From NCBI GenBank assembly GCA_024672275.1, contig GCA_024672275.1_4536.1: a DNA stretch of 64,000 nt; one strand, given 5' to 3'. The translations under genes were made by a program, and so were the position numbers. Source of the stretch: a phage. The notes below the pieces were generated by a model. It was given only the letters and a program-made list of their open reading frames with translations, searched no databases and had not been told where the DNA came from. Positions within the stretch are counted from its first letter, which is position 1. Each line of letters opens with the position of its first letter. Shown piece after piece: positions 1-35,648 of the stretch.

Positions 1-320
1 GCTTCCACTACACGAATATTAGCTAAAGCTTCATCTAATTCCTCTGTGCTACGTTCGTGTTTGCTACCACTACCTGCTAACATAGTGCAAGGTGGAAATC
101 CAAAAATAATATCGGGTTTAGGTATCCCATGATCTTCAGGGTTGAATGTAGAATCTATCCAGGCATTCACATAGGTTATGTTTGGGTGCTCCATCCTAAC
201 CTCGTATTTACCGTGATCCCCTTCATCAGCGTTTACACAAAAACACTTGTGACCTGCTTCGGCATAACGTAACACCATGATCCCAGATCCGTCAAACATA
301 GACAAAACTGTTTTACTCAT
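1..320 (-). CDS. DNA methyltransferase-like protein, N-terminal fragment (gene runs off window start)
   Basis: Own minus-strand translation from ATG at 320-318: MSKTVLSMFDGSGIMVL...DIIFGFPPCTMLAGSG; FxGxG and PPC motifs resemble SAM-binding motif I and catalytic motif IV of C5-cytosine MTases; open to position 1. Confidence 0.4.
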   Translation of the reverse strand, partial: MSKTVLSMFDGSGIMVLRYAEAGHKCFCVNADEGDHGKYEVRMEHPNITYVNAWIDSTFNPEDHGIPKPDIIFGFPPCTMLAGSGSKHERSTEELDEALANIRVVE

Positions 321-726
321 TACCCCTCCATTCAAGACAAGCCATAACTTTACGCCAATCACTTTCTGTAAGAAAAATCTCGTTTGCTTTCTTCCACAAA
401 TCTAAATCGTGAAGGGTTGGAATACGATATGTTAGTTCACAGAATCTATGCTCTTCTTCTGTAATATAACCAAAATGCAGAGCCACATCGTGAAACCAAC
501 ACCAACCATGCATCTCTCGAACAACATGGTCATGTTGAGACATTGTTTTATGCCGTAAACCTAACCAACAAGGAACAGATACTTTAGTAGTCTTTAATCT
601 GTGATCAACAGTATTAGAGTATTCAATAATAGCTGTCAGTTTCAATCGTGCTTTTTCTAAATCCTCGTGCGTCACTTTGAAATAACTTTCTGAAAGATAT
701 CCACACATATTAATAACCTCCTTCAA
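313..726 (-). CDS. hypothetical protein
   Basis: 137-aa ORF in co-directional packed gene array; no recognisable motif. Confidence 0.5.
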   Translation of the reverse strand: MKEVINMCGYLSESYFKVTHEDLEKARLKLTAIIEYSNTVDHRLKTTKVSVPCWLGLRHKTMSQHDHVVREMHGWCWFHDVALHFGYITEEEHRFCELTYRIPTLHDLDLWKKANEIFLTESDWRKVMACLEWRGNE

Positions 727-1651
727 AAGGCTTTACTACATGTTGATTAGCTTTAAAACGTTCAACATAATCGTTTTCGCCCATGTTTTCATATAGCTTA
801 GTAACAACATAAAAGTTTTCCCAAGCATATTCCCTAAACCAACCACTAGTGATGGATGTGCAGACTTTAGATAAAGCCATTATAAAACTTTGCTTAGGGG
901 TTGGACCTCCGATCTCTCCACCGAAAGGAATTTGTGAACGTTCCAAAGCCAAAACACACGCTTCTTCATAAACACCTAACAGGCGCACATGTTTTGGTTG
1001 AGCAAAAAACTTTTCTTTGCTGGTCATAACTTCACTTCCATCTTTCATATAAGATTTATATGCCGGAGCATCCATTACCGCGATTGCTTCATGGATAGAA
1101 TCATGATCATAAACATACGGAACCTCATCACCTTTAAAAAAGTCTTTACTTTTTACGTTTAAGTTCGGATGAGAGTAAGTGTATGTTTCTTTCTCACGCA
1201 ACTCATAAATACTCTTAAGATTTTCTGGGATCTTTGCGCCCAGTGACCGCATGAAATGAATATCTTTCATAGTTTTAAAGAAGTGAGGACTATCCTTTTT
1301 AAAACGATGACTCATTTTAAGAAGGTAGAGCACATCTAAAGGAGCAACAACATGTCCAGCGTAAGTTCGACGAACATCATCAGAATCTTCACAATAACTA
1401 ATCAAAGCTTCTGTGCTATCTCCTTGAGAAGCAATATCGTATTCCAAATGTGCACCAGCTATCATTTTGACATGGCCTTTGTTTCCTTTACGTTCTACAA
1501 GTTCAACAAACTCATCTTGAGAGAACATTTTTGATAATTCTTCCCACTCTTGTTCTGTACACAGGTAATCTAAATCTACACAAGGGCGATACAAGTCTTT
1601 TCCCATGTCCATAGCATGAATTTGCAATGCACGGCTACCAATTAACACCAT
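710..1651 (-). CDS. hypothetical protein, possible nucleotidyltransferase-fold protein
   Basis: 313-aa ORF; N-terminus VLIGSRAL...VDLDY resembles GS...DxD pattern of pol-beta-type NTases (weak); own promoter upstream. Confidence 0.5.
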   Translation of the reverse strand: MVLIGSRALQIHAMDMGKDLYRPCVDLDYLCTEQEWEELSKMFSQDEFVELVERKGNKGHVKMIAGAHLEYDIASQGDSTEALISYCEDSDDVRRTYAGHVVAPLDVLYLLKMSHRFKKDSPHFFKTMKDIHFMRSLGAKIPENLKSIYELREKETYTYSHPNLNVKSKDFFKGDEVPYVYDHDSIHEAIAVMDAPAYKSYMKDGSEVMTSKEKFFAQPKHVRLLGVYEEACVLALERSQIPFGGEIGGPTPKQSFIMALSKVCTSITSGWFREYAWENFYVVTKLYENMGENDYVERFKANQHVVKPFEGGY

Positions 1652-1681
1652 AATATTTCTCCTCTATTGGTTGATAGGTTA

Positions 1682-1710
1682 AGTTTATCAAGCTTCCAGA
1701 TTCCTGTCAA
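1682..1710 (-). promoter_or_regulatory. sigma70-like promoter (TTGACA-17-TAAACT) for gene 710..1651
   Basis: Minus-strand reading ttgaca ggaatctggaagcttga taaact immediately after terminator hairpin. Confidence 0.45.
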
Positions 1711-1711
1711 T

Positions 1712-1731
1712 AAAAAACCCGCCGAAGCGGG
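1712..1731 (-). terminator. rho-independent terminator (hairpin cccgc-ttcg-gcggg + U-run on minus strand)
   Basis: GC stem with tetraloop followed by ttttttatt on minus strand; also followed by T-rich tail on plus strand. Confidence 0.65.
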
Positions 1732-1741
1732 TTATTATTTA

Positions 1742-2014
1742 CTAACACATTGAGGAAGAAGAGATCCAAACACCTCTTGTGGTTAAACCATTTTCATCCA
1801 ACTCTACACCATAATCTTCACAAATGAAATCAATATAGTGATCTGCGGCTGGCGTTCCTGTAGGGTAATAAGTTTCTCCGTTACCGTAGTCACCTATCCA
1901 AGCTTGTTCCTGAAACTGTTCACAAAGTTCTTCAATCTCCTTACGAAACTTTCTTTGTGCTTGTTCCATCTCTTTAACTTTCTTTTTTATCAGCAGTTCG
2001 CCTTCAGACTCCAC
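1742..2014 (-). CDS. small protein, paralog family member A (C-terminal W-x-SSS-x-C motif)
   Basis: GTG start with AAGGAG RBS; C-terminus RGVWISSSSMC shared with two neighbours. Confidence 0.5.
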   Translation of the reverse strand: MESEGELLIKKKVKEMEQAQRKFRKEIEELCEQFQEQAWIGDYGNGETYYPTGTPAADHYIDFICEDYGVELDENGLTTRGVWISSSSMC

Positions 2015-2023
2015 AATCTCTCC

Positions 2024-2242
2024 TTAACAGCTACTACTGTGCCAAACGCCTTGAGAATTAACGACGAAACCATCATCACCTTCACCATAACAAGAAGAGG
2101 ATTGCCAATCTTCAAAACAGATTGCGTCATTTTCTAAACTAAGACCAAAACCAGCATCTTCAGCTTCTTTTGTAAGTTCGTCCACTAAAGCCATAATAGC
2201 TTGGGCTTTTTCAGTTAATTCTTCAACATTACGATCACTCAT
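2024..2242 (-). CDS. small protein, paralog family member B
   Basis: Start moved to internal ATG (MSDRNVEEL) preceded by AGAGGAG RBS; C-terminus QGVWHSSSC. Confidence 0.5.
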   Translation of the reverse strand: MSDRNVEELTEKAQAIMALVDELTKEAEDAGFGLSLENDAICFEDWQSSSCYGEGDDGFVVNSQGVWHSSSC

Positions 2243-2556
2243 TAGTATTTCTCCTCTGGTTGGAAAACTGAACGACAAGCCCACATACTAGCTTCTTTTA
2301 AATGTTTAATAGCACAACGGATTTGATCAATACGTTCGTATGCAAAATCTAATTCTTTCTCTGTGCCGTCAAAAGACCCATGATATGCTTCACAATACTC
2401 TTCCTCTAAAGCTTTGAAGATTAAACCTAAACGCTCTTCTGCATCTTTAATAGCGTTAACCTTGCCAATCTTATCGTCAGTATGCGCCTTATAACCTTTG
2501 ATATCTTCGATTCCCACTTTACCTCCTATTAACAACTTAAAGAAGATGGATGCCAA
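2242..2556 (-). CDS. hypothetical protein
   Basis: 104-aa ORF, stop overlaps next start (TAATG). Confidence 0.5.
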   Translation of the reverse strand: MASIFFKLLIGGKVGIEDIKGYKAHTDDKIGKVNAIKDAEERLGLIFKALEEEYCEAYHGSFDGTEKELDFAYERIDQIRCAIKHLKEASMWACRSVFQPEEKY

Positions 2557-2726
2557 TTTGTTCCAGTATTCTCATTTTCATCTTCTGGATCATAATAACC
2601 ACCCATCCCATATTCAGGGGAGAAACGGAAACCTTTACCAGTCTCATCTGCTAACTGCTCTGCTTCCGCTAAAGCCTCATAAGCTGCTTTTACGGCTTCT
2701 TCTACTGTTTTAAACTTGGTCGTCAT
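2529..2726 (-). CDS. small protein, paralog family member C
   Basis: AGGAGAGGAG RBS; C-terminus GTNWHPSSLSC. Confidence 0.5.
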   Translation of the reverse strand: MTTKFKTVEEAVKAAYEALAEAEQLADETGKGFRFSPEYGMGGYYDPEDENENTGTNWHPSSLSC

Positions 2727-3000
2727 AAAATTTCTCCTCTCCTAAAGACATGTTGACATGAAATGCACGATATGTAAATTCGTTGTCCGTTGTGTTTGAA
2801 TAAAACTCAAATTGAACAACACCATCTTGAGAAGACAGATACATGCCAATTTGAACTGTTCCTTCTGGTACCAGGTAAGCATACTCTGGACGTAGTGTTA
2901 CATTGTAAAAATAAAGTTCCCCAACACCCATTTCATCCCAAGCTTCCCAAGCGGTAACGAAGTTACTTTCAAAACTTGTTACTGATCTGAACTCTGCCAT
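2710..3000 (-). CDS. hypothetical protein
   Basis: 96-aa ORF in array. Confidence 0.45.
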   Translation of the reverse strand: MAEFRSVTSFESNFVTAWEAWDEMGVGELYFYNVTLRPEYAYLVPEGTVQIGMYLSSQDGVVQFEFYSNTTDNEFTYRAFHVNMSLGEEKFYDDQV

Positions 3001-3491
3001 AAAACCTCCTCAATCTTGTAGTTTGACTCCATCTCCAACACATTTCCACGAACGTCTCTCCGAAGAAAGGCATAAGCTTTATTAGGTATTGTAGACTCAT
3101 ATTTAACCATATCTGGCACAGCAAAAGATACTACTACTCCTGCTGGGCTTCTGTCAAGAGCCTTATTAATATTTCTAAGGATATCGTTAGCCAAGATTTC
3201 TGCCAATTCTCCAAGAACAGTTTCGGTTATATCTTTATATCCCATTAAGTATTTGTTGATATCTTTCATCTCTGTATTGTTCAGAGTATAGTCCAAAGGA
3301 TAGAAATTCAAAGCGGAGTCACTTTTATGTGTCCACATGAAATGCACCCGATCAGAGCAGAATCGTAACCCTCTATGAAGAATATCTTCTACAACAGGGA
3401 GAATTTCTTTTGTCACATCATTAACCATGTTGTAATCTAAGATTTCTGCCAAGTTTGTTCTTTGTTCACCACGTTTACGTTTAGGAATCAC
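2979..3491 (-). CDS. hypothetical protein
   Basis: 170-aa ORF, overlaps neighbours by a few codons. Confidence 0.5.
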   Translation of the reverse strand: MIPKRKRGEQRTNLAEILDYNMVNDVTKEILPVVEDILHRGLRFCSDRVHFMWTHKSDSALNFYPLDYTLNNTEMKDINKYLMGYKDITETVLGELAEILANDILRNINKALDRSPAGVVVSFAVPDMVKYESTIPNKAYAFLRRDVRGNVLEMESNYKIEEVLWQSSDQ

Positions 3492-4062
3492 TTGTTATTG
3501 CCCTCATTACCAAAGGTCGTAGAAAATCGTAAATCTCTTGTTTTGTTTTCCCACGAATGTTTAAACAAGGAACATTATTGGCTTTAGCTATCTTCCAAGC
3601 CGTAGCTGTTCCACCTTTTGCATCTCCATGTTTATCAGTATTAGCACAAGCCAACAAGAAACAGGATGGAGCAGGATTTTCCAAATCTCTACCTAACACT
3701 TGATGCACATTACGTTGGTGCAATTTTCTAGCACCCTGCTTAAGCTTTTCATAGGCTGGGTGAACATCTTTGATCCATTGCACAGAGATAGCATAGTTCA
3801 TTGTATCTGGTTTTGCAAGAACAATAACATCCCCTGGAATCTGATTACCTTTGAAATTTTCCCAAGGAACATAAATCTCCTTGTTAGTAGGATTTTCAGA
3901 CTCTTGGACACCTGTTTCAAAAGCAGAATCACTACCCTCTGCCTTCCCAGACCTTAATTTAAACCCAAGGTTTGAAAGCCATTTCCCTATGCCTACCATC
4001 AAAGCCCACTCTTCTTCGGATATATCTCTACTTCCAACTCCCGTATAGAACAGTTCTGCCAT
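3481..4062 (-). CDS. DprA/Smf-like Rossmann-fold (SLOG-type) nucleotide-binding protein
   Basis: YTGVGSR ... RSGKAEGSDSAFETGV resembles the GxGxR and RSGxAxGxDxxA motifs of DprA/SLOG domains; start set to ATG after GAGGTG. Confidence 0.45.
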   Translation of the reverse strand: MAELFYTGVGSRDISEEEWALMVGIGKWLSNLGFKLRSGKAEGSDSAFETGVQESENPTNKEIYVPWENFKGNQIPGDVIVLAKPDTMNYAISVQWIKDVHPAYEKLKQGARKLHQRNVHQVLGRDLENPAPSCFLLACANTDKHGDAKGGTATAWKIAKANNVPCLNIRGKTKQEIYDFLRPLVMRAITSDS

Positions 4063-4069
4063 AATCACC

Positions 4070-4378
4070 TCAACAAGTAATTTCAAAAGGTGTATAGGGT
4101 TCCGTATTTCTCATGATCCAAGGACTGCTAGGATTGCTCGGATCATAAGGACCAAAAGGTTTTATGGTAGGTTGTGTTTCTTTCTTCTGAATCTCTTCAA
4201 AAATACGACGAAGTTCAGAATATTCTTGATCCACCATAAGATTCGGTGCATCTGATTCTACAGCTTGCAGGTTATCTTCCTTAAGAACAATCTCACGAAC
4301 AAGATTAACATCTTCTGTTTCTAAGATAACTTCTTTACGGATATTGCCTACACTTTGAATAATTGTAACCTTATACAT
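4070..4378 (-). CDS. hypothetical protein
   Basis: 102-aa ORF. Confidence 0.5.
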   Translation of the reverse strand: MYKVTIIQSVGNIRKEVILETEDVNLVREIVLKEDNLQAVESDAPNLMVDQEYSELRRIFEEIQKKETQPTIKPFGPYDPSNPSSPWIMRNTEPYTPFEITC

Positions 4379-5121
4379 TAATCCTCCTCAAGAGTTGAAT
4401 AAAATTGAAGACCACCGTCCATATCGAAATAAGCAAATGTTAAGTTATTATTGAACACAGATCCAGTATCCATATAAACACGATTCGCATTGATAATAGG
4501 TGTTTTTACATAAGAGTGTCCATGAAACACATAATCCACACCCATCACAACAGGAAGTTTCATTCCCTCTTTAGCACAATCCACCATATCTCTGTCCCAC
4601 ATAAGTGCTTCAGCAAAACGGTTTTCCTGTGTTTTTGTCATCTTCGAAGTGTATTCTGGAATATCTGTTACAGGGAGATATTCCAAAGAAGACGGATACC
4701 CACCATGAATAAACGCAAGTTTCATGCCTCTGTAGTTAACAATGAGAACAACAGGTAAATCTTCTGTCATCATTGCTAAGGCTGTAGCTCCTTCTTCACC
4801 ACATTCTTCAAGGACCGTATATCCTCCATTTTGATACCAACACTCGAAGTAGCTACGATCTCCTTCCAGCATACCTTTAATCATCATGTCTTCATGATTT
4901 CCACGAATAGCGTAGCGATTGTGTTTACGAGTAAATTCTAAAACACAACGAAAGTTTTGCTTTCCACGGTCAGTAAGATCTCCTAAAGATACAACTACAT
5001 CTGTATCTCGGATACCTAACTTTGCCTTTCCTTTTTCATACAAATTATAACAACCGTGTAGATCTCCAATTATAAAAAGATCTTGATCGCTTTTAACAGT
5101 AATTTCTCTGTGTATGATCAC
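4378..5121 (-). CDS. serine/threonine protein phosphatase (PPP family, lambda-phosphatase-like)
   Basis: GDLHG, GDLTDRG and GNHE motifs in canonical order. Confidence 0.8.
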   Translation of the reverse strand: MIIHREITVKSDQDLFIIGDLHGCYNLYEKGKAKLGIRDTDVVVSLGDLTDRGKQNFRCVLEFTRKHNRYAIRGNHEDMMIKGMLEGDRSYFECWYQNGGYTVLEECGEEGATALAMMTEDLPVVLIVNYRGMKLAFIHGGYPSSLEYLPVTDIPEYTSKMTKTQENRFAEALMWDRDMVDCAKEGMKLPVVMGVDYVFHGHSYVKTPIINANRVYMDTGSVFNNNLTFAYFDMDGGLQFYSTLEED

Positions 5122-33956: not shown

Positions 33957-34031
33957 GGCCCTGTAGCTCAATGGGAGAGCTGTCGGCTCATAACCGATAG
34001 GTAGCTGGATCGAAACCAGCCAGGGCCACCA
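33957..34031 (+). tRNA. tRNA with CAU anticodon (Met or lysidine-Ile), CCA encoded
   Basis: Hand-folded: 7-bp acceptor ggccctg/cagggcc, anticodon loop ctCATaa, T-loop atcgaaa. Confidence 0.7.
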
Positions 34032-34033
34032 AC

Positions 34034-34108
34034 GTCTTTATGGTGTAATGGATAGCACAGGAGTCTTCTAAACTCTTAGTCAAGGTTCGATTCCTTGTAA
34101 AGACACCA
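34034..34108 (+). tRNA. tRNA-Arg (anticodon UCU)
   Basis: Acceptor gtcttta/taaagac, loop ctTCTaa, T-arm caagg-ttcgatt-ccttg, CCA encoded. Confidence 0.7.
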
Positions 34109-34304
34109 GAACATTTTAACATGAATTAGCTCAAGTGATTTGAACCCACTACTGATCATGGTGGCAGAGAATGAGGCAAGTATGTCAGACATTATAAACA
34201 AAGGCCACGGTTATATTAGAAGACATAAATGCTCGAAGAGCACCGTTCGTTGAGAACGGTGGTTGGTGGAGTCACCATTCATGGTAAAATGTTTTAAAAA
34301 ACTA

Positions 34305-34334
34305 TTGACAACTAACATTATTTTATGTTAGATT
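34305..34334 (+). promoter_or_regulatory. sigma70-like promoter (TTGACA-18-TAGATT), ACTATTGACAA family
   Basis: About 8 nt upstream of tRNA-Ser 5' end. Confidence 0.5.
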
Positions 34335-34342
34335 ATAAGTAT

Positions 34343-34433
34343 GGAAGGGCAAATCGACGTGGCGACGAAAACGGTCTTGAAAACCGCCGAGCTTGAAAGA
34401 GCCTTGGGAGTTCGACTCTCCCTCCTTCCGCCA
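34343..34433 (+). tRNA. tRNA-Ser (anticodon UGA), class II
   Basis: Long variable arm, loop ctTGAaa, T-arm gggag-ttcgact-ctccc, discriminator G, CCA encoded. Confidence 0.7.
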
Positions 34434-34437
34434 GATT

Positions 34438-34523
34438 GGTAGATTGGTGAAATGGTAGCCACGACAGTTTGCTAAACTGTAGTCGGAAACGGCGTGTAGG
34501 TTCGAGTCCTACATCTACCGCCA
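34438..34523 (+). tRNA. tRNA-Ser (anticodon GCU), class II
   Basis: Acceptor ggtagat/atctacc, stem acagt/actgt, loop ttGCTaa, long variable arm, discriminator G. Confidence 0.7.
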
Positions 34524-34653
34524 AGTTCTTTTTAATATAGCTTACTTTAATAGAGTAAACTTTCGGCAGATGGCCCCCACCATCTTACCGATACCTCATA
34601 GTTAGTGGTGCGAACACTGGCTATTTTAAAAAGAATTTAAATATTAGTATTTA

Positions 34654-34741
34654 GGTGAGTTAATTCCGTAGGGGTAGCGGGGCAGACTGTAAATCTGTTA
34701 TCATTGCGATTCGGGTGGTTCGACTCCATCACTCACCACCA
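34654..34741 (+). tRNA. tRNA-Tyr (anticodon GUA), class II
   Basis: Acceptor ggtgagt/actcacc, loop ctGTAaa, long variable arm, CCA encoded. Confidence 0.65.
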
Positions 34742-34747
34742 AATTAA

Positions 34748-34833
34748 GATGAGTTGGCTGAACGGTTTAAGCGGCGGACTGTTAATCCGTGTTCGAAAGA
34801 ACGATATAGGTTCAAATCCTATACTCATCGCCA
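34748..34833 (+). tRNA. unusual tRNA: Asn-type anticodon arm (GUU) in a long-variable-arm (class II-like) scaffold, discriminator G
   Basis: 86 nt with CCA; stem gcgga/tccgt, loop ctGTTaa; 15-nt variable region gttc-gaaa-gaac. Confidence 0.55.
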
Positions 34834-34840
34834 GAATTAT

Positions 34841-34917
34841 GGACTTGTAGAGTTAAGGTAAACCCCCAGTCGCCAAGAGGCTTCTGGAATTGCAGGTATC
34901 GAATCCTGCCGAGTCCC
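34841..34917 (+). pseudogene. degenerate tRNA-like element
   Basis: Acceptor ggacttg/cgagtcc and T-arm-like gcagg...cctgc (8-nt loop) but no regular anticodon arm; no CCA. Confidence 0.3.
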
Positions 34918-34923
34918 AGCTTT

Positions 34924-34998
34924 GCTCCTATAGTATAATGGCTATTACAACGGTTTTGTAATCCGTGGATCTCTGTTCGATTCAGAGTGGGAGCACCA
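34924..34998 (+). tRNA. tRNA-Thr (anticodon UGU)
   Basis: Acceptor gctccta/tgggagc with one GU, D-arm gtataatggctattac, loop ttTGTaa, T-arm ctctg-ttcgatt-cagag, CCA. Confidence 0.6.
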
Positions 34999-35271
34999 AT
35001 ACAACATTAAGGGCACTGTGATTGATCGTCGTATCCTGTGCACAAGGTCTGCTCGAAAGACAGTGTTCTTAGTATTGTGTTGATCACACAAAGAGTTACC
35101 TGAAACTTGACCGGAGTAGGGTTGGATGGGGCAAAAGAAGAAGCGGCTCTCCCATCGACAGCAACGAAGAATAATATTTGACTTTGGTTTTGTATTATTT
35201 TAAGTTAGCTTACCGAACGTAGGGCTAGTCACCCAATGGGATACTCGTCACTGTCCCACTCAATAAAACTA

Positions 35272-35301
35272 TTGACAACCAATAGTAAAATGTAGTATAG
35301 T
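35272..35301 (+). promoter_or_regulatory. sigma70-like promoter (TTGACA-18-TATAGT), ACTATTGACAA family
   Basis: About 11 nt upstream of tRNA-Gly. Confidence 0.55.
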
Positions 35302-35312
35302 AAAGATGTAGG

Positions 35313-35386
35313 GCGTTCTTGGTGTAGCGGTAGCATTCCGTCCTTCCAAGTCGGCGGCACGAGTTCGATCCTCGTAGAACGCTCCA
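35313..35386 (+). tRNA. tRNA-Gly (anticodon UCC)
   Basis: Acceptor gcgttct/agaacgc, loop ctTCCaa, T-arm acgag-ttcgatc-ctcgt, discriminator U, CCA. Confidence 0.65.
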
Positions 35387-35484
35387 AATTATTTAATAAA
35401 GGGTTGCCAGAAAACTTTCTCTTTTACTCATGGTTTTCTCCTTCTCTCACACCTCTTCTGGTTGCCCTTCATTAAATGATTTAT

Positions 35485-35560
35485 TGGTTTGTAGTGTAGT
35501 CCGGTAGCACACGACACTTTGACTGTCGTAGGTTTGGTTCAAATCCAGACAGACCAGCCA
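35485..35560 (+). tRNA. tRNA-Gln (anticodon UUG)
   Basis: U1-A72 start, stem cgaca/tgtcg, loop ctTTGac, discriminator G, CCA. Confidence 0.7.
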
Positions 35561-35565
35561 TATAA

Positions 35566-35642
35566 CGGAATTTAGCTCAGTTTGGTAGAGCATACGCTTT
35601 GGGAGCGTAGGGTCGCAGGTTCGAATCCTGCAATTCCGACCA
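35566..35642 (+). tRNA. tRNA-Pro (anticodon UGG)
   Basis: C1-G72, D-arm gctcagtttggtagagc, stem tacgc/gcgta, loop ttTGGga, T-arm gcagg-ttcgaat-cctgc, CCA. Confidence 0.75.
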
Positions 35643-35648
35643 ATCAAA

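Follow-up and report, generated by a model that had tools for sequence, protein, structure and literature searches.

In T4-type phages, the hyperplastic internal-protein (IP) loci encode diversified proteins that carry a constant terminal targeting sequence, an N-terminal tag that is cleaved by the prohead protease. In another group of described systems, including GlnD/PII, MntA/HepT, and MenT/MenA, a nucleotidyltransferase is paired with a small protein partner, whose gene lies upstream in the toxin-antitoxin pairs. Arrays of lanthipeptides and other ribosomally synthesized and post-translationally modified peptides (RiPPs) consist of tandem, diversified small open reading frames (ORFs) with a Ser/Cys C terminus and one adjoining conserved enzyme gene, and the Acb2/Tad1 sponges are small early phage proteins. 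Here, we analyze a locus that resembles each of these systems in part: three small genes, which we call A, B, and C, whose products end in a shared W-x-SS-x(0-2)-Cys tail with a chain-terminal Cys, together with the enzyme-like gene that lies downstream of them. The locus is part of a 64,000-nucleotide stretch of phage DNA (contig GCA_024672275.1_4536.1 of GenBank assembly GCA_024672275.1), hereafter referred to as the window.

How does this locus compare with what has been described? Like the T4 IP loci, it is an array of diversified small proteins with one short constant terminal motif, and the Cys-tail genes of T4-like Dhakavirus phages occupy the same e.x/tRNA part of the genome. In contrast to the IP loci, however, there is no shared N-terminal motif, the constant element is C-terminal, and a nucleotidyltransferase-like gene is the partner. 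As in GlnD/PII, MntA/HepT, and MenT/MenA, a gene with a pol-beta-type motif stands beside small partners, which are upstream as in toxin-antitoxin pairs, but Pfam, NCBIfam, and PADLOC give no sequence match to those systems, up to five partner paralogs accompany each enzyme, and the conserved feature of the partners is the terminal Cys tail and not a Tyr loop. Unlike MntA/HepT and MenT/MenA, the Cys-tail module was found only in phages and not in bacterial chromosomes, and the Rx4-6H motif that marks the HEPN partner of MNT/HEPN systems is not conserved in the linked enzyme. The RiPP arrays and the sponges, one of which appears to be encoded inside the array itself, are taken up below, where the readings of the locus are weighed. 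The closest database family is phrog_899, which all three proteins match, but its entry carries no function, terminal-Cys rule, arrays, or enzyme linkage.

Linkage of the tail genes to an enzyme-like gene

The main new result of this analysis is a conserved linkage, in which one to five tail genes directly precede, on the same strand, a gene whose product of about 300 amino acids (aa) carries a DUF7277 and a DUF7275 domain. In the window, this is the gene that lies 91 nucleotides (nt) downstream of A; it was overlooked in the initial annotation of the stretch and belongs with the tail array. We assembled a set of 52 loci seeded with the small proteins (48 IMG/VR contigs, three GenBank phages, and the window), using a narrower family alignment for the seeding and grouping the neighbors by all-against-all clustering of ORFs. 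The enzyme gene was present within 6 kb in 50 of these 52 loci, and in 45 of the 50, the small genes preceded it on its own strand, at distances of 4 to 1372 nt; one of the two loci that lack the enzyme gene is interrupted by the end of its contig.

Seeding with the enzyme gave one to five tail ORFs no more than 3 kb upstream, on the same strand, in 70 of 80 IMG/VR loci (71 of 80 with a slightly wider tail pattern). The tail is carried by 188 of 1039 upstream same-strand ORFs but by only 5 of the 4856 remaining ORFs of these loci (odds ratio, 214; p = 5e-140). When the enzymes were dereplicated, 27 of 30 clusters at 70% identity and 20 of 21 at 60% retained the arrangement. Some of the apparent exceptions among the enzyme-seeded loci bear near-tails, in which the Cys falls one or two residues short of the end. 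The linkage spans Straboviridae, Stephanstirmvirinae, Otagovirus, and phage contigs of 300 to 450 kb, with enzymes that are 40 to 50% identical and surrounding genes that differ; tail genes precede the enzyme gene in Pseudomonas Otagovirus as well as in Acinetobacter T4-like phages. The dependence is asymmetric: tail genes almost never occur without the enzyme gene, whereas the enzyme gene can occur alone.

The genes between recognized family members and the enzyme that were missed by our hidden Markov model (HMM) are often tail-bearing themselves, with unrelated-looking bodies of about 60 to 180 aa; examples end in ...DWNSSSYNC and ...YWRASSAHC, and a group of 140 to 180 aa ends in ...DWNTSYC or ...AWHSSMC. 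By BLAST, the 275 distinct tail ORFs fall into 13 clusters, one a connected group of 235 and the other twelve either small or made up of a single ORF. The tail stays constant, and the bodies diverge, in places past BLAST or HMM detection.

As a side observation, near-tails upstream of the enzyme were seen in a few large-phage loci (positions 4528-4983 of locus L136 and 4262-4480 of locus L149), with the Cys 1 to 2 residues from the end and endings such as ...GWAPSNVCW and ...AWTPSGCSY.

The small-protein family and its C terminus

Compared two at a time by BLAST, A, B, and C gave no significant match (E = 0.64 and E = 0.013, with no alignment for the third pair), and homology was therefore established at the profile level. 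All three match the C-terminal region of phrog_899 (profile positions 148-221; function unknown), with E values of 5.1e-14 for A, 1.4e-5 for B, and 1.2e-12 for C, and all three match a family HMM built here (4e-25, 7e-8, and 3.9e-23, respectively). The initial annotation had read the three genes as paralogs with a conserved tail and a C-terminal Cys, and these matches bear it out; the motifs that it quoted are all present (YGNGETYY and GVWISSSSMC in A, YGEGDDGF and GVWHSSSC in B, and YGMGGYY and TNWHPSSLSC in C). A profile search of 1.84 billion representative proteins recovered 807 family clusters (50% identity) at E<=1e-3 and 167 at E<=1e-10, and in nearly all of them, the profile alignment reaches the very last residue.

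The most conserved feature of the family is the terminal Cys. It is present in 213 of the 216 fetched family members, and it is the sole Cys of the protein in 111 of the 216. Among the 213, Trp is at position -7 in 201, Ser is at -4 in 203, and Ser is at -3 in 209; A and C have the canonical -7 spacing, and the -5 spacing of B recurs in 10 members. Gly-Gly usually precedes the tail Trp. Farther upstream, YGMGG is present in 134 and YG.G in 179 of the fetched members, and the family consensus can be written as helix-AExIADExG-F.F..AYGMGGxYYP-(acidic variable insert, often with extra W-x-SS copies)-GxW-x-SS-x-x-C. An alignment of 70 sequences places the conservation in the central and C-terminal parts, with no conserved N-terminal motif. 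Across the family, the residues that never vary are F, Y, G, G, G, W, S, S, and C, none of them basic. The small proteins, which we take to be cytoplasmic, are strongly acidic, with a median isoelectric point (pI) of 4.4 in the family and a net charge of -8 to -13.

Three of the 216 representatives lack the terminal Cys; two of them end in ...CS, and one seems truncated.

Neither A, B, and C nor ten consensus-like members matched any family in Pfam, NCBIfam, or PADLOC. A DNA pattern encoding YGMGGTYYP matched 13 times in IMG/VR and not once in the bacterial and archaeal genomes searched (185,579, one per species). Given this distribution, the family is apparently restricted to phages, mostly those with genomes of 90 to 450 kb. 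The exact A, B, and C proteins bear the source name "hypothetical protein" throughout. In the record of Escherichia phage ESCO10 (OM386655.1), a tail-family gene is named "inhibitor of prohead protease," its paralogs are named "helicase" and "DNA helicase," and the enzyme gene appears as "baseplate hub subunit"; the product names of this record look misassigned.

A predicted fold shared by A and B

AlphaFold2 models A with high confidence (predicted local distance difference test score [pLDDT], 94.7, from the 70-sequence alignment) as a helix at residues 4-34, a hairpin at the YGNG turn, the variable insert, a strand at residues 82-85 (VWIS), and a terminal helical turn at residues 86-89. The model of B (pLDDT, 78.8) has a helix at residues 3-29 and four strands, and it is least confident (pLDDT, <50) at residues 49-54, where an internal copy of the tail is located. 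In these models, then, A and B share a fold plan rather than only a run of Ser residues, and the likeness that the initial annotation had noticed extends beyond low-complexity sequence to a helix-plus-sheet arrangement. For the family, the models suggest a long N-terminal helix on a small beta-sheet, with the invariant Trp on the last strand and the chain ending in S-S-x-x-Cys-COOH. Fold comparison against the Protein Data Bank (PDB; up to April 2026) gave no solved structure like these models, and a PDB sequence-profile search with the small family returned only coiled-coil noise. The matches to the model in BFVD are all uncharacterized proteins of T4-like and other large phages.

The linked enzyme-like gene

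The product of the enzyme-like gene matches two Pfam families, DUF7277 in its N-terminal part (E = 8.4e-14) and DUF7275, a helical domain (E = 1.1e-75), and in an alignment of 32 homologs, these were the only families above the Pfam threshold. The N-terminal part carries the signature hG[GS] ... D-x-[DE] plus a third carboxylate that is expected of a pol-beta nucleotidyltransferase: G5-S6 and D26-x-D28 are invariant across the 32 homologs, and E70 is nearly so. Two of the 32 weakly match NTP_transf_5 (E = 0.026), and two GenBank records label an enzyme homolog as a nucleotidyltransferase. At the level of this motif, we regard the protein as a putative nucleotidyltransferase. In the DUF7275 domain, the same alignment gives K112, S114, H115, K126, T127, R152, H183, D184, and H187 as invariant, followed by E229, E230, E237, R238, K262, and R273. 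The family comprises at least 2,515 clusters; the best 120 matches are without exception unnamed, plain two-domain proteins (about 300 aa each), with no informative domain fusions among them. A PDB sequence-profile search found no relative of the enzyme.

Two further assignments of DUF7275 were considered. A HEPN domain, with R116-x6-H123 as its motif, was rejected, as R116 is conserved and H123 is not among the 32 homologs. The residues H115 ... H183-D184 ... H187 are reminiscent of an HD phosphohydrolase, and Pfam gave no HD match.

The most conserved stretch of the enzyme (residues ~262-273) reads K-V-C-T-S-I-T-S-G-W-F-R, with Cys and Trp seven apart and Ser/Thr between them, which is the tail motif in reverse. 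This Cys is present in most, not all, homologs, and the likeness may be a coincidence. A shorter enzyme homolog without tail genes is encoded by Vibrio phage K354 (positions 1-3663 of the locus), just downstream of genes for a ribose-phosphate pyrophosphokinase, a phosphatase, and a nicotinamide phosphoribosyltransferase, a cluster of the type associated with NAD (nicotinamide adenine dinucleotide) salvage.

Age of the paralogs

The initial annotation had proposed that A, B, and C are a family under diversifying selection, and this part of its reading is not supported. In contig L005 and phage phiWec190, the orthologs of the three proteins are 75 to 82% identical, as compared with 78% for the enzyme gene and 81% for the phosphatase gene in the same comparison. 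The ratio of nonsynonymous to synonymous substitution rates (dN/dS) is 0.05 to 0.15 where dS is measurable. The divergent pairs have a saturated dS (>1) and the close comparison contains too few substitutions, so these values establish only that nonsynonymous change is not in excess relative to the neighbors. With these ortholog identities and dN/dS, and a rate equal to that of the neighboring genes, diversifying selection finds no support. Each paralog type also has orthologs in T4-like Dhakavirus phages, which indicates that the types are old: Dhakavirus WG01 encodes proteins of the A, B, and C types in four tandem genes, A orthologs in T4-like phages are 36 to 57% identical, and B-type orthologs are found in WG01 and in locus L004. 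By these comparisons, A, B, and C are old paralog types, each under purifying selection.

Local anatomy of the array

The first 6 kb of the window are 99% identical to many Phapecoctavirus genomes (phAPEC8-like Escherichia coli myophages, Stephanstirmvirinae), and A, B, and C are part of a run of small minus-strand genes (Table 1). The initial annotation had the coordinates of the three genes right but missed their strand. It also described them as tandem, and they do form one array, but the copies are not strictly adjacent, since an additional gene stands between B and C. The window has 559 ORFs of 30 aa or more, and of these only A, B, and C end in the tail pattern.

Table 1. Positions of the array genes, the enzyme-like gene, and nearby regulatory sequence matches in the window
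Feature	Coordinates	Strand	Description	Make-up and context
Enzyme-like gene	710-1651	-	313 aa	DUF7277 + DUF7275
Sigma-70-like promoter match	1710-1682	-	TTGACA-17-TAAACT, TG extension; consensus match only	before the enzyme gene
Intrinsic-terminator-like hairpin	1716-1733	-	AACCCGC-TTCG-GCGGGTT + T run	directly after gene A
Gene A	1742-2014	-	90 aa; GTG start, AAGGAG 5 nt upstream	helix, AWIGDYGNGETYYP hairpin, 30-aa insert, tail VWISSSSMC
Gene B	2024-2242	-	72 aa; divergent type	shortened terminal tail VWHSSSC (Trp at -5)
Acb2/Tad1-hairpin-domain gene	2242-2517	-	91 aa; GTG start; not a family member	between C and B
Gene C	2529-2726	-	65 aa; canonical minimal family member; pI 4.3	helix, FRFSPEYGMGGYYDP hairpin, tail NWHPSSLSC; sole Cys is the last residue
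Upstream gene	2710-3000	-	96 aa; phrog_4991 (function unknown)	17-nt overlap with the start of C
Promoter-like site	3157-3128	-	consensus match only	could drive the five-gene unit

On inspection of the sequence, each of the three genes has a plausible ribosome-binding site and is coupled to its neighbor by the proximity of stop and start. The gene upstream of C is probably the first of the transcription unit; the ribosome-binding site of the Acb2-like gene comes after the stop codon of C, the stop of the Acb2-like gene overlaps the start of B in TAATG, and the ribosome-binding site of A contains the stop of B. The three genes are annotated as coding sequences for hypothetical proteins in GenBank records of near-identical and related phages, and the terminator site after A is also annotated in the records of phages Schickermooser and phAPEC8. 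B has an additional copy of the tail, EDWQSSSC, within the protein (residues 44-55 region), followed by YGEG and then by the terminal VWHSSSC, so that B-type proteins look like one and a half repeats, or a partial internal duplication, of the family unit.

The gene between C and B matches Pfam PF24729, the Acb2/Tad1 hairpin domain (E = 1.6e-16; 60.7 bits versus a cutoff of 27), and is a candidate sponge directed against the antiphage systems CBASS (cyclic oligonucleotide-based antiphage signaling system) and Thoeris. Compared with phAPEC8, it is 66% identical (dS, 1.4) versus 97 to 100% for all other genes of the region. In phiWec190 and in contig L005/L071, it is missing between C and B, and C, B, and A are contiguous. 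By these comparisons, the Acb2-like gene, and not A, B, or C, is the variable cassette of the array, and it behaves as a mobile one that has been inserted and swapped.

Several other genes lie nearby. Upstream of the array, the window encodes a DprA-like protein (3481-4062, minus strand; phrog_768, E = 2e-62, with no Pfam match above threshold) and a NinI-like calcineurin-type phosphatase (4378-5121, minus strand); of the 52 small-protein-seeded loci, 10 have a Metallophos phosphatase close to the module. Farther away are ten tRNA genes (33957-35879, plus strand; Met, Arg, Ser, Asn, Thr, Gly, Gln, Pro, Ile, and Met), and tRNA genes are also found near the module or near a lone enzyme gene in several phage groups, for example, in a Dhakavirus locus (L003) and a Gordonia phage locus (L053).

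What might the module do?

From anatomy and co-occurrence alone, we tentatively infer a two-component module, in which the tail is an element that the enzyme recognizes, whether to modify it or to use it for docking; we favor this reading over those that follow while holding it to be possible and somewhat short of probable. In this model, the tail proteins and the DUF7277/DUF7275 enzyme would form one functional module, with the C-terminal W-x-SS-x-x-Cys tail as the handle that is recognized. The enzyme would either modify the tail covalently, by nucleotidylylation of Ser or Cys or by follow-on chemistry, or dock on it, and the variable bodies, which would carry the specificity, may serve it as substrates, as adaptors, or as regulators. 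A Cys that is invariant and has to be the final residue argues for a chemical or ligand role that needs both the thiol and the free carboxylate, and the fact that it is the sole Cys in half of the family argues against a disulfide or an intramolecular metal site. We further speculate that the module works in the early phase of infection, for host takeover or counter-defense. This is our weakest inference, and it comes from the genomic setting, in which a sigma-70-like promoter match precedes a series of small genes with a slot where an Acb2-like gene has been inserted and swapped. One could go further and posit a phage-specific protein-tagging system, in which the enzyme modifies a C-terminal tag on up to five small effectors, by nucleotidylylation of Ser or Cys or by forming a derived ring or conjugate, and thereby activates them or targets them against host processes or defenses; we think this specific form somewhat unlikely.

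Several considerations weigh against an enzyme-recognized tail. The known pol-beta-fold protein nucleotidyltransferases (GlnD, GlnE, DrrA, and MntA) modify Tyr hydroxyls, and the Tyr of the YGxG turn is not invariant in the small proteins, being Phe in B. The enzyme has no Pfam nucleotidyltransferase match above threshold, its assignment resting on a short motif. In the A model, the tail belongs to a confident fold (strand 82-85 and turn 86-89) and is not a free peptide, and being packed, it could be less accessible to the enzyme. Where the enzyme homolog belongs to a Streptomyces, Gordonia, Alteromonas, or Vibrio phage, no tail gene lies upstream, which implies that the tail proteins are not the only partner or substrate of the enzyme. 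The terminator-like hairpin and the promoter-like site between A and the enzyme gene imply that the two are not strictly cotranscribed. Finally, large phages can retain synteny between genes that have no functional link.

Could the small proteins instead act on their own? Thiol-carboxylates such as captopril and thiorphan are classic inhibitors of zinc enzymes, and the tail could be a warhead of this kind, its terminal Cys chelating the catalytic metal of a host enzyme (a defense nuclease, phosphohydrolase, or peptidase), with Trp and Ser positioning the Cys and different bodies aiming at different enzymes. The strictly terminal Cys, so often the only one in the protein, fits the need for thiol plus carboxylate, and one constant tail on diversified bodies, in an anti-defense-type setting where the array adjoins Acb2, is what such stand-alone inhibitors would look like. 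In a variant, the tail would plug the His/Asp cluster of the neighboring DUF7275 domain as a regulator, and the invariant H115, H183, D184, and H187 could form the metal site. However, the near-obligatory linkage to the enzyme is left unexplained unless the neighboring enzyme is itself the target, and the tail is modeled as packed secondary structure. We also know of no precedent for a protein inhibitor that works through a C-terminal Cys. We consider stand-alone inhibition unlikely.

Alternatively, the linkage may reflect no shared function at all, with the tail serving as a structural or stability motif in an ancient small-protein fold and the genes residing together in a conserved early-gene block that moves as a unit. 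The AlphaFold2 placement of the Trp strand and terminal turn inside the fold, the terminator and promoter-like site that separate A from the enzyme gene in the window, and the lineages in which the enzyme has no tail genes would all be in keeping with this, as would the unrelated genes (a homing endonuclease, Acb2, and others) that are sometimes inserted between the tail genes and the enzyme. Yet nothing in a structural role calls for an invariant Cys as the very last residue of bodies that have diverged past BLAST, and the linkage is kept across distant phage groups even as enzyme sequences and surroundings change. On balance, this explanation seems to us quite improbable.

The position of the array beside an Acb2/Tad1-like gene, and the size of its products (65 to 90 aa), raise the question of whether A, B, and C are themselves sponges, oligomerizing via the N-terminal helix and sequestering immune second messengers; the conserved Gly-rich loop and aromatic residues could be construed in this way, and several paralogs could serve several signals. 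Unlike the Acb2/Tad1 sponges, however, A, B, and C have no match to PF24729 at E<=1 and no structural match to solved sponges (PDB, up to April 2026), and these strongly acidic proteins offer no invariant basic residue for binding phosphate. The terminal Cys and the enzyme linkage would both go unexplained, and a 2025 preprint that screened sponge-like viral proteins does not contain the terms cysteine, C-terminal, nucleotidyltransferase, RB69, or phAPEC8. A sponge function is very doubtful.

Least credible of all is that A, B, and C are RiPP-like precursors with a helical leader and a Ser/Cys tail as the core of a C-terminal lanthionine, AviCys, or azoline ring, for although Ser at -4/-3 and Cys at 0 match the i,i+3 and i,i+4 spacing of lanthionine rings and tandem diversified copies by one enzyme resemble precursor arrays, no LanB/C/M/KC/L, YcaO, radical-SAM, or LanD domain was found by Pfam among the neighbors in the window or the recurrent neighbors in the 52 loci, DUF7277/7275 is the sole constant partner, a leader-cleavage motif is absent, and the tail is an integral strand of a confident fold on bodies that are conserved under purifying selection and are not disposable leaders.

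Significance

Taken together, the data point to a two-part phage module of a kind that has not been described, rather than to a set of fast-evolving duplicates. We rate it so because the features tested for Acb2/Tad1, RiPP, T4 IP, and toxin-antitoxin systems fail and because the literature is silent: among 8 million full texts, we found nothing relevant on phrog_899, on DUF7275, on the tail or loop motifs, or on a phage nucleotidyltransferase combined with a C-terminal cysteine. For neither partner did we find a name, a solved structure, or a paper.

The module is widespread: its small proteins form about 800 clusters and its enzymes about 2,500, spread over T4-like, phAPEC8-like, and Otagovirus phages and phage contigs of >300 kb, and it is present in well-studied, therapeutically used phages of E. 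coli, Klebsiella, Acinetobacter, and Pseudomonas. An invariant, strictly C-terminal Cys on proteins that otherwise diverge is a strong chemical clue. If the tail is indeed a tag that the enzyme recognizes, the module would represent a new kind of viral post-translational system, and its effector proteins could be found by their tail alone.

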